Shown: positions 734 to 9,607 of the stretch, piece by piece
Layout of the letters: each line of letters starts with the position of its first letter
Position numbering within the stretch: position 1 is the first letter of the stretch
Assembly (NCBI RefSeq): GCF_988243305.1
Contig: NZ_OZ547136.1
Direction: 5' to 3' (one strand)
Length of the DNA: 64,000 nucleotides
The notes under the pieces: generated by a model
Told to the model about the DNA's origin: nothing
The model's input: the letters and a program-made list of their open reading frames with translations, nothing else
Databases searched by the model: none
Position numbers and translations under genes: made by a program

Positions 734-818
734 CTTAATCTCCAGTTTTAGCCGCTCATCACTTTAGTTTTCTGTCTGAGGGTTCATGCTGTACCCAGTT
801 GTAGGTGATGACTCCAAC

Positions 819-1322
819 TTACTGATAGTGTTTTATGTTCAGATAATGCCCGATGACCTTGTCATGCAGCTCCACCGATTTTGAGAACGACAGTGACTTC
901 CGTCCCAGCCTTGCCAGATGTTGTCTCAGATTCAGATTATGTCGCTCAATGCGCTGAGTGTAACGCTTGCTGATAACGTGCAGCTTTCCCTTCAGGCGTG
1001 ATTCATACAGCGGCCAGCCATCCGTCATCCATACCACGACCTCAAAGGCCGACAGCAGGCTCAGAAGACGCTCCAGTGTGGCCAGAGTGCGTTCACCGAA
1101 GACGTGCGCCACAACCGTCCTCCGTATCCTGTCATACGCGTAAAACAGCCAGCGCTGACGTGATTTAGCACCGACGTAGCCCCACTGTTCGTCCATTTCA
1201 GCGCAGACAATCACATCACTGCCCGGTTGTATGCGCGAGGTTACCGACTGCGGCCTGAGTTTTTTAAGTGACGTAAAACCGTGTTGAGGCCAACGCCCAT
1301 AATGCGTGCACTGGCGCGACAT
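819..1322 (-). CDS. insB: IS1 transposase InsB
   Basis: 167-aa ORF matching IS1 InsB as recalled ([92 protein letters not shown]). Confidence 0.9.
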
Positions 1323-1516
1323 CCGACGCCATTCATGGCCATATCAATGATTTTCTGGTGCTTACCGGGCTGAGAGGCGGTGTAAGTGAACTGTAGTTGC
1401 CATGTTTTACGGCAAGGAGAGCAGAGATAGCGCTGATGTCCGGCAGTGCTTTTGCCGTTACGCACCACGCCTTCAGTAGCGGAGCAGGAAGGACATCTGA
1501 TGGAAATGGAAGCCAC
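1241..1516 (-). CDS. insA: IS1 InsA
   Basis: 91-aa [46 protein letters not shown], the expected InsA. Confidence 0.9.
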
Positions 1517-1753
1517 GCAAGCACCTTAAAATCACCATCATACACTAAATCAGTAAGTTGGCAGCATTACCAGAAAATGATAAGGTAAACATTGAAAAGC
1601 AGCCGACTGATGACTGTTTTTTATAGTTGCATTTTTATTTTTTGTTATTTTCATTTATATTCCCTTACTTGTCGTTTAAAATTCTTCTATATAACAGGAA
1701 GAGGTAACCATAGAATGAACGTTTATTTTCCTGTATCAGAACAGCCATAACTT

Positions 1754-2224
1754 TTATTTTATAGTTGTTATCAGTGAATGAATGCAACCTAATAGAACAA
1801 TGAGGAAAACAATGGAGAAAAAGCGACGGACCGGACGCCATAGTTCATATTCTCGTGTATCAGCCTCACGTATCAACCTTTCTGAAATGGTTTCGGTTTC
1901 TTTTCCTCGCACCAGAATATGTCTGTAATATTTCCTCATGACATATACCGAAAACTGAAACCAGATTAATATGGATGGACACACAACACATAAACTTCTG
2001 ATGATATCACCCGGGAAAGTATCTTGGGCGGGTAAAAGAAAGTCATATACTCTGGATAAAATCATCATCGAGATAAATGAGACGCCAGCACCTATCCAGT
2101 ATTCGATATGAGAAGATGCTGCATTATATGCGTCAGTAAAATTTTTCTTTCTTAATGAAGGTGGAAGTGCTGAAAGTTCAGGAATACGTTTTCTTGTCCA
2201 GTATATTTTCATATAGTAACTCAT
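1754..2224 (-). CDS. hypothetical membrane protein in AT-rich island DNA
   Basis: 156-aa ORF with several hydrophobic stretches; no family recognised. Confidence 0.3.
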   Translation of the reverse strand: MSYYMKIYWTRKRIPELSALPPSLRKKNFTDAYNAASSHIEYWIGAGVSFISMMILSRVYDFLLPAQDTFPGDIIRSLCVVCPSILIWFQFSVYVMRKYYRHILVRGKETETISERLIREADTREYELWRPVRRFFSIVFLIVLLGCIHSLITTIK

Positions 2225-2669
2225 ATAAAAAGTGTTCTACTTTACTATGATGATGACGATTTATAAAAGGCTTATAATGACTACTTCTCCTTTCATTCTC
2301 GAATTTCACGATAATGATAGAGATAATCATTATCAATTGATAGTATCAGTAATTTTGACTTACATCACACTTTCATGGTTTAATCAGGTGATTGATTTAA
2401 TGAAAAGAGTGTGTTTGTGGATGTATTGTGTATATGTCTTACCGGGCATCTGTTCTTACATTAATTAATATATTGCTATTTAAGTATTGGTAGTATTGTC
2501 AGTAACATTCTTTTGGTTAATTTAGTTATTATTCCTCACTGATTAATTGTCCTTCCGTTCTTATTGTTTGTAACTTGTGTTTGTATCGTACCTTTCAGGT
2601 GTTGATGCGCGCTTTACTGTGTCTGCACCGGCTTGACAAAATTCAACAGGGGTTGAAAAGGAACATTTC

Positions 2670-3179
2670 GTGCAAATAACCGAAGCCTTAATTTCAGAGC
2701 CGGGGGAAATCCGGCGTTTTGTTCAGCAGGCGGTGGACCACTGGCCAAATCTGTTGGCATTTCACTTCACGCTCTATTCGGCAGAAGGAATCTATGGTCA
2801 ACAGATTCAGACATTTTGTAGTTCCTTTCACCGACGGGTACACGAACGTATTACGGAGCATAATCACACGGTCAGCCCATCAGCGCCGGTGGTATTACGC
2901 TGGTTGCGGGAACAACATGAAGGAGCACAGATACGATGTCTGTTGCTGCTCAGCCAGACGAGTATTTGCCATCCGCGAGTCGGCGTCATGGCTGATGAAG
3001 AATGTGCGCAACTGGTGGATTTACTGCAACAGACCTGGTCGGTGATAAGTGCTGGCGGACAATGCCGGGTGGAAAGATGTTTTCGGGTTGCCCGGCTTGG
3101 TTCATCAGGGCAATACGTGGCGTTAAAAACGGCTGTTCAGTCCTTTATGTCGCAGGTTATTGCAACAATCATCCGGTGA
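2670..3179 (+). CDS. hypothetical island protein
   Basis: 169-aa ORF with normal codon composition; may be the N-terminal part of a gene broken before ORF 3232..3891. Confidence 0.35.
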   Translation: MQITEALISEPGEIRRFVQQAVDHWPNLLAFHFTLYSAEGIYGQQIQTFCSSFHRRVHERITEHNHTVSPSAPVVLRWLREQHEGAQIRCLLLLSQTSICHPRVGVMADEECAQLVDLLQQTWSVISAGGQCRVERCFRVARLGSSGQYVALKTAVQSFMSQVIATIIR

Positions 3180-3231
3180 TTGTCGGGAGGAATATCAATG
3201 CTTCCGTTAATTTTTACTGGCTGATAAAGTT

Positions 3232-3891
3232 TTGTCTGCTGAATCTTTATACGGAATTCCTTTCAGTATGCGTACACGAATTGACTATCTGGCGGATAAA
3301 TACTGTTTTACAGAACGGAACGAATCCCCCCGTCTTCGCCGGCAGTGGCAGGATGTTCTGGAGGAGTGCCGGCAGACAGAGGCCGGGCCAGAAGAACGGT
3401 TGCGTATTGCACTGCTGAATGTGGATTACGTCACCAGTTTTGAACTGCCTTTTCGCTTGCTGCTTACCCGTACACCGCAATTGATTGCCGCGCTGCGTGA
3501 AGAATGGGGCATCAGCCAGAAAAATGTGGTGTTTAACGATAAACGGTTTGGCTGCGTGTACAGCCTGAAGGCCAGCCTTTCTGGTGTGCCGGATACATAC
3601 CGGTATCATCTGTCTCACCGTATTCGTCGCGTGGTTGGGAATGAAAACACATCATTGCCATATCAGCAGGTTGCCCGGGAAGTGAAAGCGCCCCGTGAAC
3701 GGCTGAAGTATGCACTGGAGGCGGGTTTGCTGGTGACTGCACTGGACGGCCTGTTCTGGTTTGGCAGTCAGCGTATTGCGGCTGATGTTCTGAGGCTGAG
3801 AAAGGCCGGAATGCCGGTGGTGACCACGACCGTGGAGGTGCACGATAACCTGACGGGAACAACCCGCAAAGTACCGGCATACCATCTCTGA
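3232..3891 (+). CDS. hypothetical island protein
   Basis: 219-aa ORF, GC-normal; no family recognised. Confidence 0.4.
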   Translation: MSAESLYGIPFSMRTRIDYLADKYCFTERNESPRLRRQWQDVLEECRQTEAGPEERLRIALLNVDYVTSFELPFRLLLTRTPQLIAALREEWGISQKNVVFNDKRFGCVYSLKASLSGVPDTYRYHLSHRIRRVVGNENTSLPYQQVAREVKAPRERLKYALEAGLLVTALDGLFWFGSQRIAADVLRLRKAGMPVVTTTVEVHDNLTGTTRKVPAYHL

Positions 3892-3986
3892 TACAACCAT
3901 CAGGGGGAATATTGCTCTGGCAGCAGCAGTATGACATTCTTTATACTTTATCCCCGTGCCTGAAAACATGTGCTAAGGAAACGGGA

Positions 3987-4220
3987 ATGGCAAGGTCCGA
4001 TTATGATATTATCAATCTGTCTCTGGAACATGAACTGAATGAGTGGCTGGCAGAGAGAGGTTATGCCGGACTGGTGGATAACCGGAATCGCCTGGCAGAA
4101 GTTGTTACCCGCAAATTGCAGGACAGCTTTTATATAAACGTTTCCAGGGATGCGCTGAACACGGCATACAGTGAACACCCGGAGTGGTTTTCTGGGCTTG
4201 TCTCCGGGGATGAGAATTAA
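3987..4220 (+). CDS. small hypothetical protein
   Basis: Internal ATG (MARSDYDIINL) preceded by aaggaaa Shine-Dalgarno; 77 aa. Confidence 0.35.
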   Translation: MARSDYDIINLSLEHELNEWLAERGYAGLVDNRNRLAEVVTRKLQDSFYINVSRDALNTAYSEHPEWFSGLVSGDEN

Positions 4221-4272
4221 TAAGTGGATTATGCTGCTATCAGGTAGTGTGATTGCCGGCAGGGATTTCGTT

Positions 4273-4464
4273 TTATTCTGTTTCTTCCCGGGGTTCGGGT
4301 TTGAATTTTCCCAGAAAGTTGTACATCGGTTGCATGCAGGGATGCGGATAGCCGTCCCGCATAAACACCACCCGGGTTTCCTCAACACTGGTCAGGGTGA
4401 CAAGCGCACCATGATCGTCTTTGTATCGCTGATTGACTTTCGGTAATGGAACATCTTCTGACAT
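4273..4464 (-). CDS. small hypothetical protein
   Basis: 63-aa ORF; no family recognised. Confidence 0.25.
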   Translation of the reverse strand: MSEDVPLPKVNQRYKDDHGALVTLTSVEETRVVFMRDGYPHPCMQPMYNFLGKFKPEPREETE

Positions 4465-5051
4465 AAATTTTAGTACGGTAACAGTTAACTAAATTTTCAT
4501 GTGGTAGCACTGAATCAGGAGACTGCGTTTCCTGATGTGCGCTGTTAATTTTCTGTTTTTACGAAACATTTTCCCCTTCTTCCTGTGTATTTTATTGCGC
4601 TCCTCCTTTCATGTCCTTCCCATATCCTGAAACTCACTTAAATACTGTTGAATCGTCAAACATTGCAACTTTCAATGACTGAAATCAAAAATTGCTATTT
4701 TTTAAGCTAACCAACTGTATTAAAAGCATTCAGTGGAATAATTTTCTGCACTTTTCCAGTAATTATGGTTATAAATTTTGTAATGTGCTGTTTTTGCGAT
4801 ATATGGCAGAATAAAGAACTGTTCATTTGTGTTATATCGATCGATAAATCTGTCATGTTGCTGTAGTTCAGATCATTATTCTATAATGATCAAAATTAAG
4901 TCAATTCTGGCTGGTTTGTTACTCAGCATTCTGGTACCGGTTGATGCGGGTAAATACCGGAAGGGCGGTAGCGTGCCATCGCAAAACATGGTGGGAGGTA
5001 TCGTCAGGAGGCTGGTGATTGTTGGTATGACATGAATAAAAGGTTTTTCGT

Positions 5052-6185
5052 TTGACTGGAAAATTATGTTGCAGGAACGAGAGGACTGAGGAACAAAGCT
5101 TATTCCGGCGCTGTCCGTCCTTGCTGTCACTGACACTGATGTCTGCTTTATTATCGCCTTTATCTCTTCAGGCAGCGGATGTCCGGCGTAGCGGAGATGA
5201 AGCATTTATCATTCAGCAGCAGCGTCAGGAAGCCCTTGAGCAACAACTGACGCCTTCAGCCCCTGATGTTCGCCTTTCTGCACCTGGCTCTTTTGCCCAT
5301 AAGATTAATTTTCCTGTTGAAACGCCCTGTTTTCAGATTAAACAGACGGAACTGAAGGGGGCTGATGCGTTACCACACTGGCTGCCTTTACAAAAAATCG
5401 CCAACGGGGCGGTCGGGCATTGCCTGGGGGCGAAAGGAATTAATCTGCTGATGAGTACATTGCAGAACCGTCTGGTCGATCATGGTTATGTCACCACCCG
5501 TGTTCTGGCACCTTCGCAGGATTTAAAAAGCGGTATCCTCCGGCTGGTCATTATTCCCGGTGTTGTGCGACATGTGCGTCTGACACCGGACAGTGATGAC
5601 TATATTCAGTTGTATTCCTCATTCCCGGCACACGAAGGTTCTCTGCTGGATTTACGGGACATTGAGCAGGGGCTGGATTTAGGTAACAGCCGGATACAGG
5701 GACAACATACTGAGCTGAATGCAACCAGTGGAAATCTGTCTACACAGAATGCGCAACTGAGTGCCGGTACGCTTTCCGCCCGGACTGCCGGGCAGTTCAG
5801 CAGTAATGGCGGTACGATAAATGCCGACACACTGCAGATATCGGCACAAAGCCTGTCAAATCGTAAAGGCAGTCTGATTCAGACGGGAACAGGGGATTTT
5901 TCGCTGAGTCTGCCGGGAAGCGTGGATAACCGGGAAGGGCTGCTTGCGGCAAATGGCGCGGTGCGTCTGGATGCACTGAGCCTTGATAATCGCAAGGGGA
6001 AAGTGCAGGCGGAGCAGTCACCCTCCCTTCAGAAATCCCCGCCCACGTTTCTGAAACCGTTTGTGGCTGGTGTCTGTGCGGCATTGCTGGCGGTCAGCGT
6101 GGCTATTCCGGGATGGCAGTTTCTGACACAGCCATCACCGGAGGAGCAGCATTTTACCTGGGGGAATGGTTGTAAAAAGCAGTGA
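5052..6185 (+). pseudogene. Two-partner-secretion remnant: TpsB (CdiB/ShlB/FhaC-like) N-terminal POTRA-like segment fused in frame to a hemagglutinin-type repeat fragment (CdiA/TpsA-like); far shorter than an intact TpsB or TpsA
   Basis: N-terminal part resembles TpsB transporters ([27 protein letters not shown]); C-terminal part is Ser/Gly/Asn/Leu-rich repeat text typical of filamentous hemagglutinin/CdiA; 377 aa total. Confidence 0.5.
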
Positions 6186-6425: not shown

Positions 6426-9107
6426 ATGGTCACGATTTGTGTTGACGGTGAAAATAAGACTCATAAAATTACCGACTGGACGCTGTGGGCTGGAAATGAC
6501 GACAGAGAGGTTATGCTGACCTGTCATTTTCGCAGCGGGAGAAAATATACTCGTCCGCTTTCTGTATGTCAGATAACGCCAACTGTAAATTTGCGAAATG
6601 TTTTCCTCGAAAGGAAAGGGAACGCTGTAACATCCCGGGCTGAACTGGTTATTATATATGGTGATAAATATGCTGCTGTTTATTACCGCGAGGGTGAACG
6701 ACCCTACATCATGAAAACGACCGGCCTTGACTTTCAACAGTGTTCAGCATTTACAGAGCATGCCGTGTTTAATTACTTGTGTAGGGTGGCTAATGAACGT
6801 ATTTTTTATGCCCGTGGTAATAACAGAAATATCGATGAGAATATCCTTAGGCAGATAAAGAAAATAGTTCCTCATCCGGATACCGCCTTGCATGCATACT
6901 GTTCAGGACAGAGTAAAAAACGTGATTCGCCATGGGGTTTGATTTTTCCGTTTGGTCTTAATGAAAGTCAGTTGCTGGCTGTCAAACGGGCATTTTCCTC
7001 ACAGATTTCAGTTATTGAAGGACCACCTGGAACAGGTAAAACACAGACTATACTCAATATTGTTGCTAATATATTAATTCAGAATAAAACAGTGGCAATT
7101 TTGTCCAATAATAACTCAGCTGTCAGTAATGTTTATGAAAAGATGGACAAACAGCAACTGGGATATGTGATGGCACGACTGGGGAGTACGGAGAACAGGC
7201 AACAGTTTTTTTCAACGTCGATTTCGCGTTCTGAGGAAGTCTTACCTGACTCACCGTCTGCAAATGCGATTGATGATGTACTTCAACAAGTGAAAAAACA
7301 CCTGAATGCCATTAACCAGGTCGCTTCGTTAAAAGCAGAAATTAATGAGCTGAATATTGAGTATAAATACCTGCAGCAATGGCAGAGTCAGAATCTTCGA
7401 CCGGAGGAGCTTTTTTCTCACAAATACCGATTTTCCTCACAAAAAACAACCGACCTGATGGCTTATATTCATTACCTTTCTGACAGGCGGATTGGATTCA
7501 GAAACAGAATTGATTTGTTGTTAAACTTCATGATACTGAAAGTCAAACCATTGATGATTCCGGAGAGAAGGCTGGCGCTATTTACTTCTCTTCAGCTTTC
7601 TTATTATGAAAAAAATATCCGGGAAAAACAAATTTCTCTGAATGAATATGAGGAAGTATTTAAAAAATCTGATTTTAAAATTTTACTGGGGCGCCTGACA
7701 TCATGGTCTATGCTTTATTTAAAGCAACATCTGCGAAGAAATGTTTCAACAAGAAGTTCATTCTCGGCAGAGACATACAGGGATGAATTTGACCGTTTTA
7801 TAAAGCGTTTTCCGATTATTGGTAGCAGTACGCATTCGATTATTAACTCTATCGGCAAGGGGGCCCTTCTTGATTATGTTATTATTGATGAAGCCTCGCA
7901 GCAGGATATTGTTCCGGGCATTCTGGGACTGGGATGTGCCCGTAATGTAATCGTTGTAGGGGATCGTAAGCAACTTCCACATGTTCCTGTATTACTCCCG
8001 AACAGCCCATCTCCACCGGCAGAATACTATAATTGTGAGAAATATAGTCTACTTGATTCGGTTTGTATGTTGTTCAGGAACATGGTGCCAGTAACCCTTC
8101 TTAAAGAGCATTATCGTTGTCATCCTAAAATCATTCAATTTTGTAATAAGCAGTTTTATGATAATGCTCTGATACCGTTAACGGTTGATTCCGGTGAAGC
8201 CTCATTATCTCTGGTCATCACGGCAAAAGGAAACCATACCCGTAATTTTTCAAATCTCAGGGAGCTTGAATCTCTGGAAGGTCATTACTGGGATGAAGAA
8301 AGTAGCAGGGGATACATTGCCCCATATAATGCACAGGTTAATCTGGCTGAAAAAGTGCTGCCTGCTGATTTTGTGAAATCGACGGTGCATAAATTTCAGG
8401 GACGGGAGTGCGATGAAATTGTGTTTTCCACTGTGCTGGATAAGAAGCGCAGCAGCCAGCACAGTCGGAACATCGCGTTTGTTGATAATCCTGAACTGGT
8501 GAATGTCGCTGTTTCAAGGGCCCGAAATAAATTTACGCTGGTGACTGGTAATGATGTATTTGAACGCCACGCTGGACATATTGCGGCGCTGATTCGTTAC
8601 ATCAAATACTACGCTGATGACGGAGAGATTTTCGAGAGCCCGGTCATATCAGCATTTGATTTGCTGTACAGTGAGTATGACAAATCACTGGAACGACTGA
8701 ATAGTAGATTGAATTCAAATGATTCACACTTTAAGTCAGAACAGATTGTGGCCTGCCTGTTGCGGGATATCCTGTCGCAGGATAGTTATCGGAGTATGAT
8801 GTTTCATTCACAAATAGCGCTGAATCAGTTGGTGTTGCTGGAGCGGGGGGATTTTACACACCGTGAACAGTTATTCATGCGTAACCGGGCCAGTTGTGAC
8901 TTTGTTGTTTACTATAAGGTCGGGAAGACTCCATTAGGGGTTATTGAAGTGGATGGAGGTTATCATCTGACCAGTGTTCAGGCTGAACGTGATGAACTTA
9001 AAAACAGTATACTGAAGAAATGCGGCCTGCCATTGCTAAGATTACGTACTATAGACAGTGATATAGAAGGGAAGTTGGGAGCGTTTCTGTCAGGCCTGAC
9101 AGGCTAA
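6426..9107 (+). CDS. Superfamily-1 (Upf1/DNA2-like, AAA_11/AAA_12 type) helicase with unknown ~170-aa N-terminal domain and a C-terminal restriction-endonuclease-like domain; candidate phage-defence helicase-nuclease
   Basis: Walker A GPPGTGKT (nt 7020..7043), Walker B VIIDEASQ, helicase motifs VVGDRKQLPHV, KFQGRECDEIVFS, VAVSRARNKFTLV; C-terminal CDFVVYY...IEVDGGYH...ERDELK resembles a PD-(D/E)xK-type fold. Confidence 0.8.
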   Translation: MVTICVDGENKTHKITDWTLWAGNDDREVMLTCHFRSGRKYTRPLSVCQITPTVNLRNVFLERKGNAVTSRAELVIIYGDKYAAVYYREGERPYIMKTTGLDFQQCSAFTEHAVFNYLCRVANERIFYARGNNRNIDENILRQIKKIVPHPDTALHAYCSGQSKKRDSPWGLIFPFGLNESQLLAVKRAFSSQISVIEGPPGTGKTQTILNIVANILIQNKTVAILSNNNSAVSNVYEKMDKQQLGYVMARLGSTENRQQFFSTSISRSEEVLPDSPSANAIDDVLQQVKKHLNAINQVASLKAEINELNIEYKYLQQWQSQNLRPEELFSHKYRFSSQKTTDLMAYIHYLSDRRIGFRNRIDLLLNFMILKVKPLMIPERRLALFTSLQLSYYEKNIREKQISLNEYEEVFKKSDFKILLGRLTSWSMLYLKQHLRRNVSTRSSFSAETYRDEFDRFIKRFPIIGSSTHSIINSIGKGALLDYVIIDEASQQDIVPGILGLGCARNVIVVGDRKQLPHVPVLLPNSPSPPAEYYNCEKYSLLDSVCMLFRNMVPVTLLKEHYRCHPKIIQFCNKQFYDNALIPLTVDSGEASLSLVITAKGNHTRNFSNLRELESLEGHYWDEESSRGYIAPYNAQVNLAEKVLPADFVKSTVHKFQGRECDEIVFSTVLDKKRSSQHSRNIAFVDNPELVNVAVSRARNKFTLVTGNDVFERHAGHIAALIRYIKYYADDGEIFESPVISAFDLLYSEYDKSLERLNSRLNSNDSHFKSEQIVACLLRDILSQDSYRSMMFHSQIALNQLVLLERGDFTHREQLFMRNRASCDFVVYYKVGKTPLGVIEVDGGYHLTSVQAERDELKNSILKKCGLPLLRLRTIDSDIEGKLGAFLSGLTG

Positions 9108-9607
9108 AATCTGAATAAAAAATATTGCAGCGGGAGGTCTCAAACCTGATTTGGTCATGTGCCACACACAATTGTACGAACCCCATGGACACAGGCTTCT
9201 TTGTTTTGGTTACATCAACGTACGTATTCCTGATACATATAAAAATAAGTGCTATTGCTCAAAGCTAACAGGGAATGTTTCTGTTGAATAATTCCTTAGT
9301 GAATAAACTTTATCAGGGGGTAATTCTATTACAGTGAATACTTCCTGCAAAATGATATTTGAATTGTTCACCATCTGCATCATATTTTCTTATTTACAAG
9401 TTGAAAGGATAGTATATGTTGAAAATGCATGGATTTTCCAGATGTGTTACCAGTAAGAAGCAGGTGGATAAAGGATGTGATAACAAATCCAACAACCAGG
9501 TTAATATCTGAAGATTTTTGTTGTTATTATTTATCCCCAAAGCGGTGAGTTATTAATGAAGTTTGCCTGAATGTATAAACAGAATTATTCGACATAAAGC
9601 CAGGAAA

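Follow-up and report, generated by a model that had tools for sequence, protein, structure and literature searches.

A probable recombination and insertion-sequence scar in a mosaic Escherichia coli genomic island joins the tail of a microcin M/H47 cluster, with an orphan mcmT, to island backbone genes

We analysed the block of genes at positions 1572-4470 of a 64,000-nt stretch of DNA (contig NZ_OZ547136.1 of RefSeq assembly GCF_988243305.1, the whole stretch being referred to as the window). With a probability of roughly 0.8, this block is a recombination and insertion sequence (IS) scar in a mosaic Escherichia coli genomic island, in which two unrelated modules abut: the tail of a microcin M/H47 cluster with an orphan mcmT gene (module A), and backbone genes of a P4-integrase-type island (module B). 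The initial annotation, made from the letters of the sequence, had described a single block of open reading frames (ORFs) of no recognisable family; instead, the two parts differed in origin and distribution, NF052300, PF27752 and PF13973 could be assigned, and the ORF for a membrane protein and the stub adjoining it corresponded to the published genes mcmT and mcmM.

The two modules were distinguished by composition, identity and distribution. The G+C content was 33.8% in 1572-2660 and 50.2% in 2661-4470, compared with 49.6% over the window, and just 0.12% of all 1089-nt segments in the 64 kb were equal to or lower than the first part (mean 0.496, standard deviation 0.05), so that the AT-rich start noticed initially was borne out. 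The composition shifts at approximately 2600-2670. Identity to E. coli Nissle 1917 was 96-99% up to approximately 2670 and 82-92% beyond, and the copies in a sequence type 131 (ST131) island (L006; L numbers denote the loci compared) and in strain UC4224 (L007) begin to align only at approximately 2470-2670. Of 5426 complete E. coli genomes, 1074 contained the AT-rich part, mostly as a single copy, and 2934 contained the part of normal G+C content, which occupied a median of 2 places per genome and 7 at most. The breaks in composition and identity at 2600-2670, together with the differing distribution, therefore point to two modules joined there. The full 2899 nt were 100% identical to several chromosomes of human-isolate E. 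coli in RefSeq and 99.8% identical in O157:H7 and other enterohaemorrhagic E. coli (EHEC). The block is thus ordinary in that it has already been sequenced in many genomes and is largely named; it holds little for discovery, every intact gene being named already, after its family or in a publication, and our literature search found no primary functional study of ECs1377, UCP030791 or mcmT.

Judged by its alignment, module A is the distal tail of a class IIb siderophore-microcin M/H47 cluster. Over 1572-2670 its nucleotides were 95-99% identical to the mcmA-mcmM-mcmT end of the Nissle 1917 cluster, and its genes had the same order and strands. The gene order in Nissle 1917 is mchI, mchB, ..., mchF, mcmA, a CPBP gene (228 aa, opposite strand), a 152-aa 'hypothetical' gene, UCP030791 and ECs1377, and McmM is described in a passage of a review as a MceF-like protein of 228 aa with seven transmembrane segments (PMC6795089, citing a doctoral thesis). 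In the window, the 83 nt of the mcmM stub align base for base to the first 84 nt of the Nissle CPBP gene (L003 9001-9084) with one nucleotide missing. RefSeq marks the stub as a frameshifted, incomplete pseudogene, and it encodes none of the catalytic membrane core of a complete CPBP/Abi protein. McmM belongs to the same family as the CPBP/Abi proteins MceF (microcin E492) and McsI (microcin S), which likewise lie in microcin clusters, whereas the window retains only about 27 mcmM codons.

Compared with the microcin M/H47 cluster of Nissle 1917, CA46 and CA58 (genomic island I), module A has the same order and orientation of mcmM, mcmT and AT-rich spacer and, as in Nissle, the same junction to UCP030791/ECs1377. 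It differs in that mcmM is a 27-codon frameshifted stub and in that mchB/I, mcmA/I, mchCDEF and mcmL/K are missing from the window; conversely, ECs1377 is truncated in Nissle. No other microcin-cluster DNA was detected in the 64-kb window by blastn of 9 kb of the Nissle cluster. The window consequently does not hold a functional microcin producer locus: precursor, immunity, export and modification genes are absent from it, and IS elements lie to the left. A close counterpart among known islands was the SpLE1/tellurite-adherence island of O157:H7 (ECs1377 locus), which shares 99.8% identity over 2899 nt, an identical IS1-mcmM junction, and the downstream remnant of a two-partner secretion (TPS) gene and helicase-like gene. 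To the left of IS1, O157:H7 carries a mchA-like glycosyltransferase gene and an alpha/beta-hydrolase remnant, whereas the window carries an IS600 remnant; as cargo, O157:H7 has ter and iha, whereas the window has ibrAB and a PerC-family gene. A homologue of McmT beside a mchA-like gene has been noted in O157:H7 in the same review passage (PMC6795089), and the O157 locus L002 showed that arrangement, with the glycosyltransferase gene and the hydrolase remnant left of the same IS1. An IS1 event would have led to loss of the microcin producer genes; mcmT, its AT-rich upstream region and the first 27 or so codons of mcmM survived.

Judged from its sequence, the membrane-protein ORF is mcmT: across 156 aa it shares 95% identity with the ORF downstream of mcmM in Nissle 1917, where the frame is intact at 95-97% nucleotide identity. 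McmT is described as a protein of 156 aa with three transmembrane segments in the part of the review that cites the thesis (PMC6795089). Its true homologues are few and come from E. coli, an unassigned group (about 60% identity) and Salmonella (about 53-55%). All of them begin with MK(I/L)YWT, corresponding to M5 of the 156-aa ORF, so the ATG at 2212 and a product of 152 aa, which is also the length annotated by RefSeq, are most likely. The hydropathy profile contained two strong hydrophobic segments and a weaker one, in agreement with the 156-aa polytopic membrane protein described initially. Regarding charge, the N-terminus and the loop at residues 98-133 are rich in Lys/Arg, and the loop at 61-74 has neither. 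From hydropathy and charge, McmT is predicted to be an inner-membrane protein with the N-terminus inside and three spans, its basic N-terminus and 98-133 loop facing the cytoplasm. No Pfam, NCBIfam or PADLOC family and no PDB sequence matched McmT. Three proteins considered as distant homologues (P0141-P0143) were instead the E. coli gene in frameshifted translation. The gene mcmT of the microcin M/H47 cluster can hence be recognised behind the 152-aa membrane protein called 'hypothetical' in O157:H7 SpLE1 and in many islands of extraintestinal pathogenic E. coli.

Module B is a fragment of the regulatory and replication-like backbone of P4-integrase-type islands, the fuller form of which comprises YagK/YfjJ, AlpA, Zn-ribbon proteins, UCP030791 and ECs1377. 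Its first protein was assigned to UCP030791 through its homologues, since all 120 listed (74-95% identity) carry PF27752, which bears that name, and through the RefSeq name of the identical protein, 'UCP030791 family putative phage-derived protein'. It belongs to a narrow family, for which a set of 1.8 billion proteins clustered at 50% contained 45 representatives. PF11726 (YagK_YfjJ_C) gave no match in the window protein at E ≤ 1, and distant members of the family matched it weakly (18-20 bits, cutoff 25.8). By profile-profile comparison, UCP030791 matched three YagK/YfjJ proteins of related islands with 97.5% probability (E = 6.7e-12, 138 columns), and its predicted fold is of the palm/Rep type, which supports remote homology to the YagK/YfjJ HUH Rep-like proteins. 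The order around distant members, YagK/YfjJ, AlpA, two Zn-ribbon proteins and UCP030791, provides the backbone context.

UCP030791 therefore resembles YagK/YfjJ ('inovirus Gp2', PF11726) of CP4-6/CP4-57-type islands in profile, in predicted palm/Rep fold and in AlpA backbone context, but differs from it at the motif positions. The H-x-H of YagK/YfjJ (HYH or HAH) aligns to Q-I-R in the window protein and mostly to x-x-R across the family, the region of the Y-L-A-K tyrosine is not conserved, and the family alignment contained no invariant His or Tyr at the positions of the HUH and tyrosine motifs. Since the metal-binding HUH histidines have been lost and the tyrosine is not conserved, UCP030791 is in our reading a relic of Rep type, probably not catalytic, which would more likely serve in DNA binding or regulation than as a nuclease. 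Within the Rep-like superfamily of YagK/YfjJ, UCP030791 thus takes its place as a member without the catalytic histidines. AcaB, the transcription activator of IncC, was considered as a relative and set aside (profile match E = 0.19, poor alignment). In the O157:H7 locus L002, 43 nt (9333-9375) lying 2 kb left of IS1, near a helix-turn-helix gene and a pseudogene, match the beginning of the UCP030791 gene (window 2663-2705) with 84% identity and look like the scar of another backbone copy.

The next protein matched the equivalog model NF052300 of the ECs1377 family with 324.8 bits (cutoff 190) over model positions 1-190 of 190. The model aligns from residue 28 of the ORF beginning with TTG at 3232, which is too early as a start; the ATG at 3268, used in the homologues, is supported. 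The best 120 of 724 homologues are mostly 207-215 aa long (up to 275) with 67-98% identity, and come from Escherichia, Kosakonia, Citrobacter, Phytobacter and relatives; a separate scan added loci of Serratia, Enterobacter, Klebsiella, Rahnella and others, at 58-72% identity. The C-terminal part has a winged helix-turn-helix fold. HTH_39 (PF14090) scored 16.2 bits, below its cutoff of 21.3, which a few homologues do pass, and unlike the HTH_39 phage and ArsR-like winged-helix proteins, ECs1377 has an extra N-terminal domain of 125 residues. The protein is thus predicted most likely to bind DNA as a transcription factor.

Our best guess, put forward as a hypothesis, is that ECs1377 controls whichever surface or competition operon adjoins it. 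In both the ST131 and the UC4224 copy, cdiB-cdiA-cdiI or TPS genes, intact there, come directly after ECs1377 and the 77-aa gene, and the corresponding position of the window holds the TPS remnant. Among 80 loci of other species, cdiB or cdiA was found downstream of ECs1377 in one locus each of Citrobacter, Serratia and Cedecea (L097, L083 and L088), and in these genera, as in E. coli, ECs1377 and the cdiBAI or TPS operon share one orientation. In Kosakonia, Citrobacter, Serratia and Yokenella (L015-L018, L028, L046, L059, L080), ECs1377, at about 8001-8650 of these loci, lies on the same strand as a type VI secretion system (T6SS) cluster (tssB, tssC, ...), approximately 0.6-1 kb upstream in Kosakonia/Citrobacter and 1.9-3.8 kb in Serratia/Yokenella. 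Fimbrial operons adjoin it in about 7 of the 80 loci, and in several Enterobacter and Citrobacter species it is situated in the yfdC-fadL-fadIJ or ypdAB-alaC region instead. The winged-helix proteins of this family may be dedicated regulators of contact-dependent competition loci (cdiBAI/TPS, T6SS), a weaker suggestion than the one made below for mcmT. Some observations speak against such a role: the neighbours over 78 loci are mostly unrelated core genes, only about a fifth of the loci show the link to contact-dependent inhibition (CDI), T6SS or fimbriae, which might be a coincidence of insertion hot spots for islands, residues 1-125 had no match, structural ones included, that would suggest a ligand or partner, and promoter-like hexamers and sites were at chance level in 1400-5300, the AT-rich spacer included. 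A fixed operon partner was also sought by clustering the neighbours of the 78 loci and none emerged, the largest cluster being LysR-like with 18 members at variable positions. The recurrent position of ECs1377 ahead of CDI, TPS or T6SS loci nevertheless gives a testable regulatory hypothesis.

The simplest reading of mcmT is that it is an orphan resistance gene that remained, or was retained, when IS1 brought about the loss of the producer genes, where orphan refers to the 64-kb window. According to the review passage citing the thesis, mcmT confers resistance to microcins H47 and M and cross-resistance to four microcins with different targets (PMC6795089), and E. coli is known to carry orphan bacteriocin immunity genes (PMC12546727). 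McmT alone, in the inner membrane, would blunt the imported siderophore-microcins of competitors without the cost of production. When genomes with at least 80% coverage were counted among the 5426 complete ones, mcmT was present in 1027 (about 19%, including O157:H7 and other EHEC), mcmI-mcmA in 234 and the mcmM body in 419, that is, mcmT was about four times as frequent as the microcin M genes, in raw counts that ignore kinship in a collection where O157:H7 and other EHEC are heavily sampled. It is conceivable, if rather doubtful, that mcmT, which also occurs beside integrases in Salmonella, is a widespread stand-alone gene of broad-spectrum resistance, serving as 'cheater' armour against strains that, like Nissle 1917, produce siderophore-microcins. 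Besides the uneven sampling behind these counts, several points tell against the resistance reading: the phenotype is second-hand, coming from an unpublished thesis through a review, our literature search found no later paper mentioning mcmT, mcmT may outnumber mcmA through hitch-hiking on an island segment that was successful and not through selection, and the mcmT copy in L004 is frameshifted. If the thesis report is true, it bears on how well microcin probiotics of the Nissle 1917 type displace carrier strains.

Alternatively, the mcmT product might have nothing to do with microcin resistance and be a small membrane protein belonging to integrative elements, such as a factor of an exclusion or abortive-infection type, whose gene merely adjoins the microcin cluster in E. 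coli. We consider this unlikely, although the surroundings of the distant homologues favour it. In Salmonella enterica, the homologue (L008-L010 8001-8459, about 53-55% identity, 152 aa) is the first gene after a tyrosine integrase in a small island with AlpA, DUF2857 and TraR-like genes that adjoins a cyclodipeptide synthase/P450 cluster; a homologue stands right after a tyrosine integrase, in an island of this type, in unassigned metagenomic contigs as well, and no microcin genes were found near the homologues in those loci. McmT moreover has, in addition to its missing Pfam, PADLOC and PDB matches, no similarity to known small immunity proteins, and the cross-resistance to four microcins, as the review passage gives it, would be unusual for a specific immunity protein. 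On the other hand, the sole experimental statement, in that same passage, ties mcmT to microcin resistance, the gene in E. coli is always beside mcmM or an mcmM stub, and no PADLOC defence model matches McmT. A conserved partner of McmT was looked for too, and the neighbours in Salmonella and the metagenomic contigs had no Pfam family and were not CPBP proteins. That the whole block is decaying, non-functional debris which IS-mediated deletions left behind and the island carries with it, its mcmT and backbone genes no longer expressed or selected, appears quite unlikely. The block is indeed flanked and interrupted by IS elements and pseudogenes (IS600 remnant, IS1, mcmM stub, TPS remnant), and the same genes are broken elsewhere, as with the frameshift of mcmT in L004 and the truncation of ECs1377 in Nissle. 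Horizontally acquired AT-rich DNA is also often silenced in E. coli.

Decay is opposed by the state of the genes in this and other genomes. The five ORFs are all intact in the window, and hundreds of genomes carry them uninterrupted at 100-99.7% identity. Among copies diverged by 6-14%, substitutions in ECs1377 (3268-3891, compared with L006) number 11, 9 and 30 at the first, second and third codon positions, respectively, and the frames of ECs1377 and the 77-aa gene are open in both diverged copies. The aligned segment of UCP030791 is open in L007; in L006 it has an insertion and stops, yet RefSeq annotates an intact 182-aa homologue there. ECs1377 is constant in length and conserved at 60-72% identity across many genera of Enterobacterales, and the mcmT homologues in Salmonella retain length and motifs at about 53-55% identity. 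It had also been proposed initially that 2670-3179 and 3232-3891 are halves of one broken gene, which would require a split by frameshift. The two ORFs are adjacent on the same strand, 52-88 nt apart, and UCP030791 and ECs1377 co-occur in many E. coli islands, but their frames differ, a stop and an untranslated spacer separate them, and each is of full length relative to its own family: the listed homologues of UCP030791 are mostly 165-183 aa (few of 187-217 aa) and those of ECs1377 fall in the range given above. When we looked for a single longer homologue, a fusion of about 390 aa occurred in none of the 240 listed homologues (120 per ORF). In addition, the spacer is 88 nt here and 268 nt in L006, ECs1377 stands alone in 78 loci of other Enterobacterales, where a UCP030791 relative lies within 8 kb in just one, and the AlphaFold2 models of the two proteins are each compact and confident when predicted separately. 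A split gene is therefore extremely improbable, and we retain the mosaic of two modules as our interpretation, with UCP030791 and ECs1377 as separate genes of module B.

Gene calls were tested by comparison with the diverged copies of Nissle 1917 (L003), the ST131 island (L006) and strain UC4224 (L007), and the resulting features are collected in Table 1. The ORFs listed initially all exist as reading frames, and the homologues and diverged copies support five intact genes and one gene stub, the other ORFs being non-genes. The five stay open in the copies compared, with substitutions favouring third codon positions where divergence suffices. Overlapping, antisense or alternative-frame ORFs (3002-3418, 3533-3937, 3948-4388 and 4171-4446) and the small ORFs of the AT-rich part (1592-1750 and 2232-2468) were rejected as genes on account of stops in other copies, 2232-2468 being also disrupted in L004. 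The terminal inverted repeat of IS1, ...GGCAGCATTACC, could be read directly with its outer end at 1571, which makes the left edge of the block at 1572 exact; the start of IS1 at 804 was set from the canonical IS1 length of 768 bp.

Table 1. Features in and around the block at 1572-4470 (positions in the window; a dot marks a feature without strand).
Feature	Position	Strand	Basis
IS1 (IS1F-like), left boundary, truncates mcmM	804..1571	-	RefSeq transposase 819-1516 on identical sequence
mcmM stub, first ~27 codons, 1-nt deletion, cut by IS1	1572..1654	-	Nissle 1917 alignment, RefSeq pseudogene
mcmT, 156 aa from 2224 / 152 aa from ATG 2212	1754..2224	-	homology to Nissle 1917 ORF
AT-rich divergent intergenic region, module junction near right end (~2600-2670)	2225..2669	.	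G+C 0.321
UCP030791-family protein, 169 aa, GTG start	2670..3179	+	PF27752 on homologues, RefSeq name
ECs1377-family protein, 207 aa	3268..3891	+	NF052300
77-aa protein	3987..4220	+	RefSeq coding sequence WP_000124179.1
DUF4222 protein, 63 aa	4273..4464	-	PF13973
ops element GGCGGTAGCGTG, leader of TPS remnant	4964..4975	+	exact match
TPS (ShlB/CdiB-type, POTRA) gene remnant	5139..6185	+	RefSeq 'POTRA domain-containing protein'

The two small genes at the right end of module B were characterised in the same way. The 77-aa gene is intact in L006 and L007, with an upstream extension to 3912 that is not conserved, and its protein had no Pfam, NCBIfam, PHROG or PDB match. By tblastn it was detected only in E. 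albertii among the 80 ECs1377 loci, so that its conservation is restricted to Escherichia. The DUF4222 protein matched PF13973 with E = 4.4e-23 (81 bits, cutoff 27, model positions 1-52 of 53) and also phrog_1343 and phrog_285 (both 'unknown function'), and gave no match in a sequence search of PDB; its gene is present in L007 and absent from the ST131 copy L006. The ORFs of the block did not turn out to be well-characterised prophage housekeeping proteins, as all PHROG matches were of 'unknown function' and the ECs1377 protein occurred in 1 of 50,697 phage records. Scans for anti-phage defence models of PADLOC gave chance-level matches only (E > 0.01). In 1400-5300, terminator-like sites were in marginal excess (6, against a shuffle mean of 2.9 with a standard deviation of 2.0), repeats were short and chance-like only, and the search for structured RNAs returned only a sub-threshold JUMPstart match, outside 1572-4470.

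This JUMPstart match (4924-4975, 21.3 bits against a threshold of 35, E = 0.24) contains the ops element GGCGGTAGCGTG, which is the only match to that motif in the 64 kb, lies approximately 165 nt upstream of the TPS/POTRA remnant, and is identical in L001, L002 and L005. Although outside 1572-4470, this element belongs to the same module as the backbone genes; it suggests that the decayed TPS operon was formerly RfaH-dependent. The same 12-nt ops is also present inside T6SS clusters downstream of ECs1377 in Kosakonia (L015/L016 15667-15681, between hcp and clpV) and Citrobacter (L017 14053-14064), and in the ST131 island (L006, 18731) a further copy lies upstream of a gene for a DNA cytosine methyltransferase.

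Further to the right, the same island carries ibrA/ibrB-like genes (a 3'-phosphoadenosine 5'-phosphosulfate reductase and an IbrB-like protein of ParB type) followed by a PerC-family regulator gene and a 214-aa hypothetical gene (approximately 9600-12500; L005 34608-37476). A tRNA-Ser gene on the minus strand (approximately 24836-24923; L005 49836-49923) comes directly after the DUF4942/CbtA-CbeA/antirestriction backbone end of the island; because no integrase lies between this backbone end and the tRNA-Ser gene, the integrase end of the island must be elsewhere or lost. Next to the TPS remnant, an 893-aa AAA/helicase-like ORF on the plus strand (6426-9107) is intact in the window, and is frameshifted in the otherwise identical loci of CMZE120 and O157:H7.

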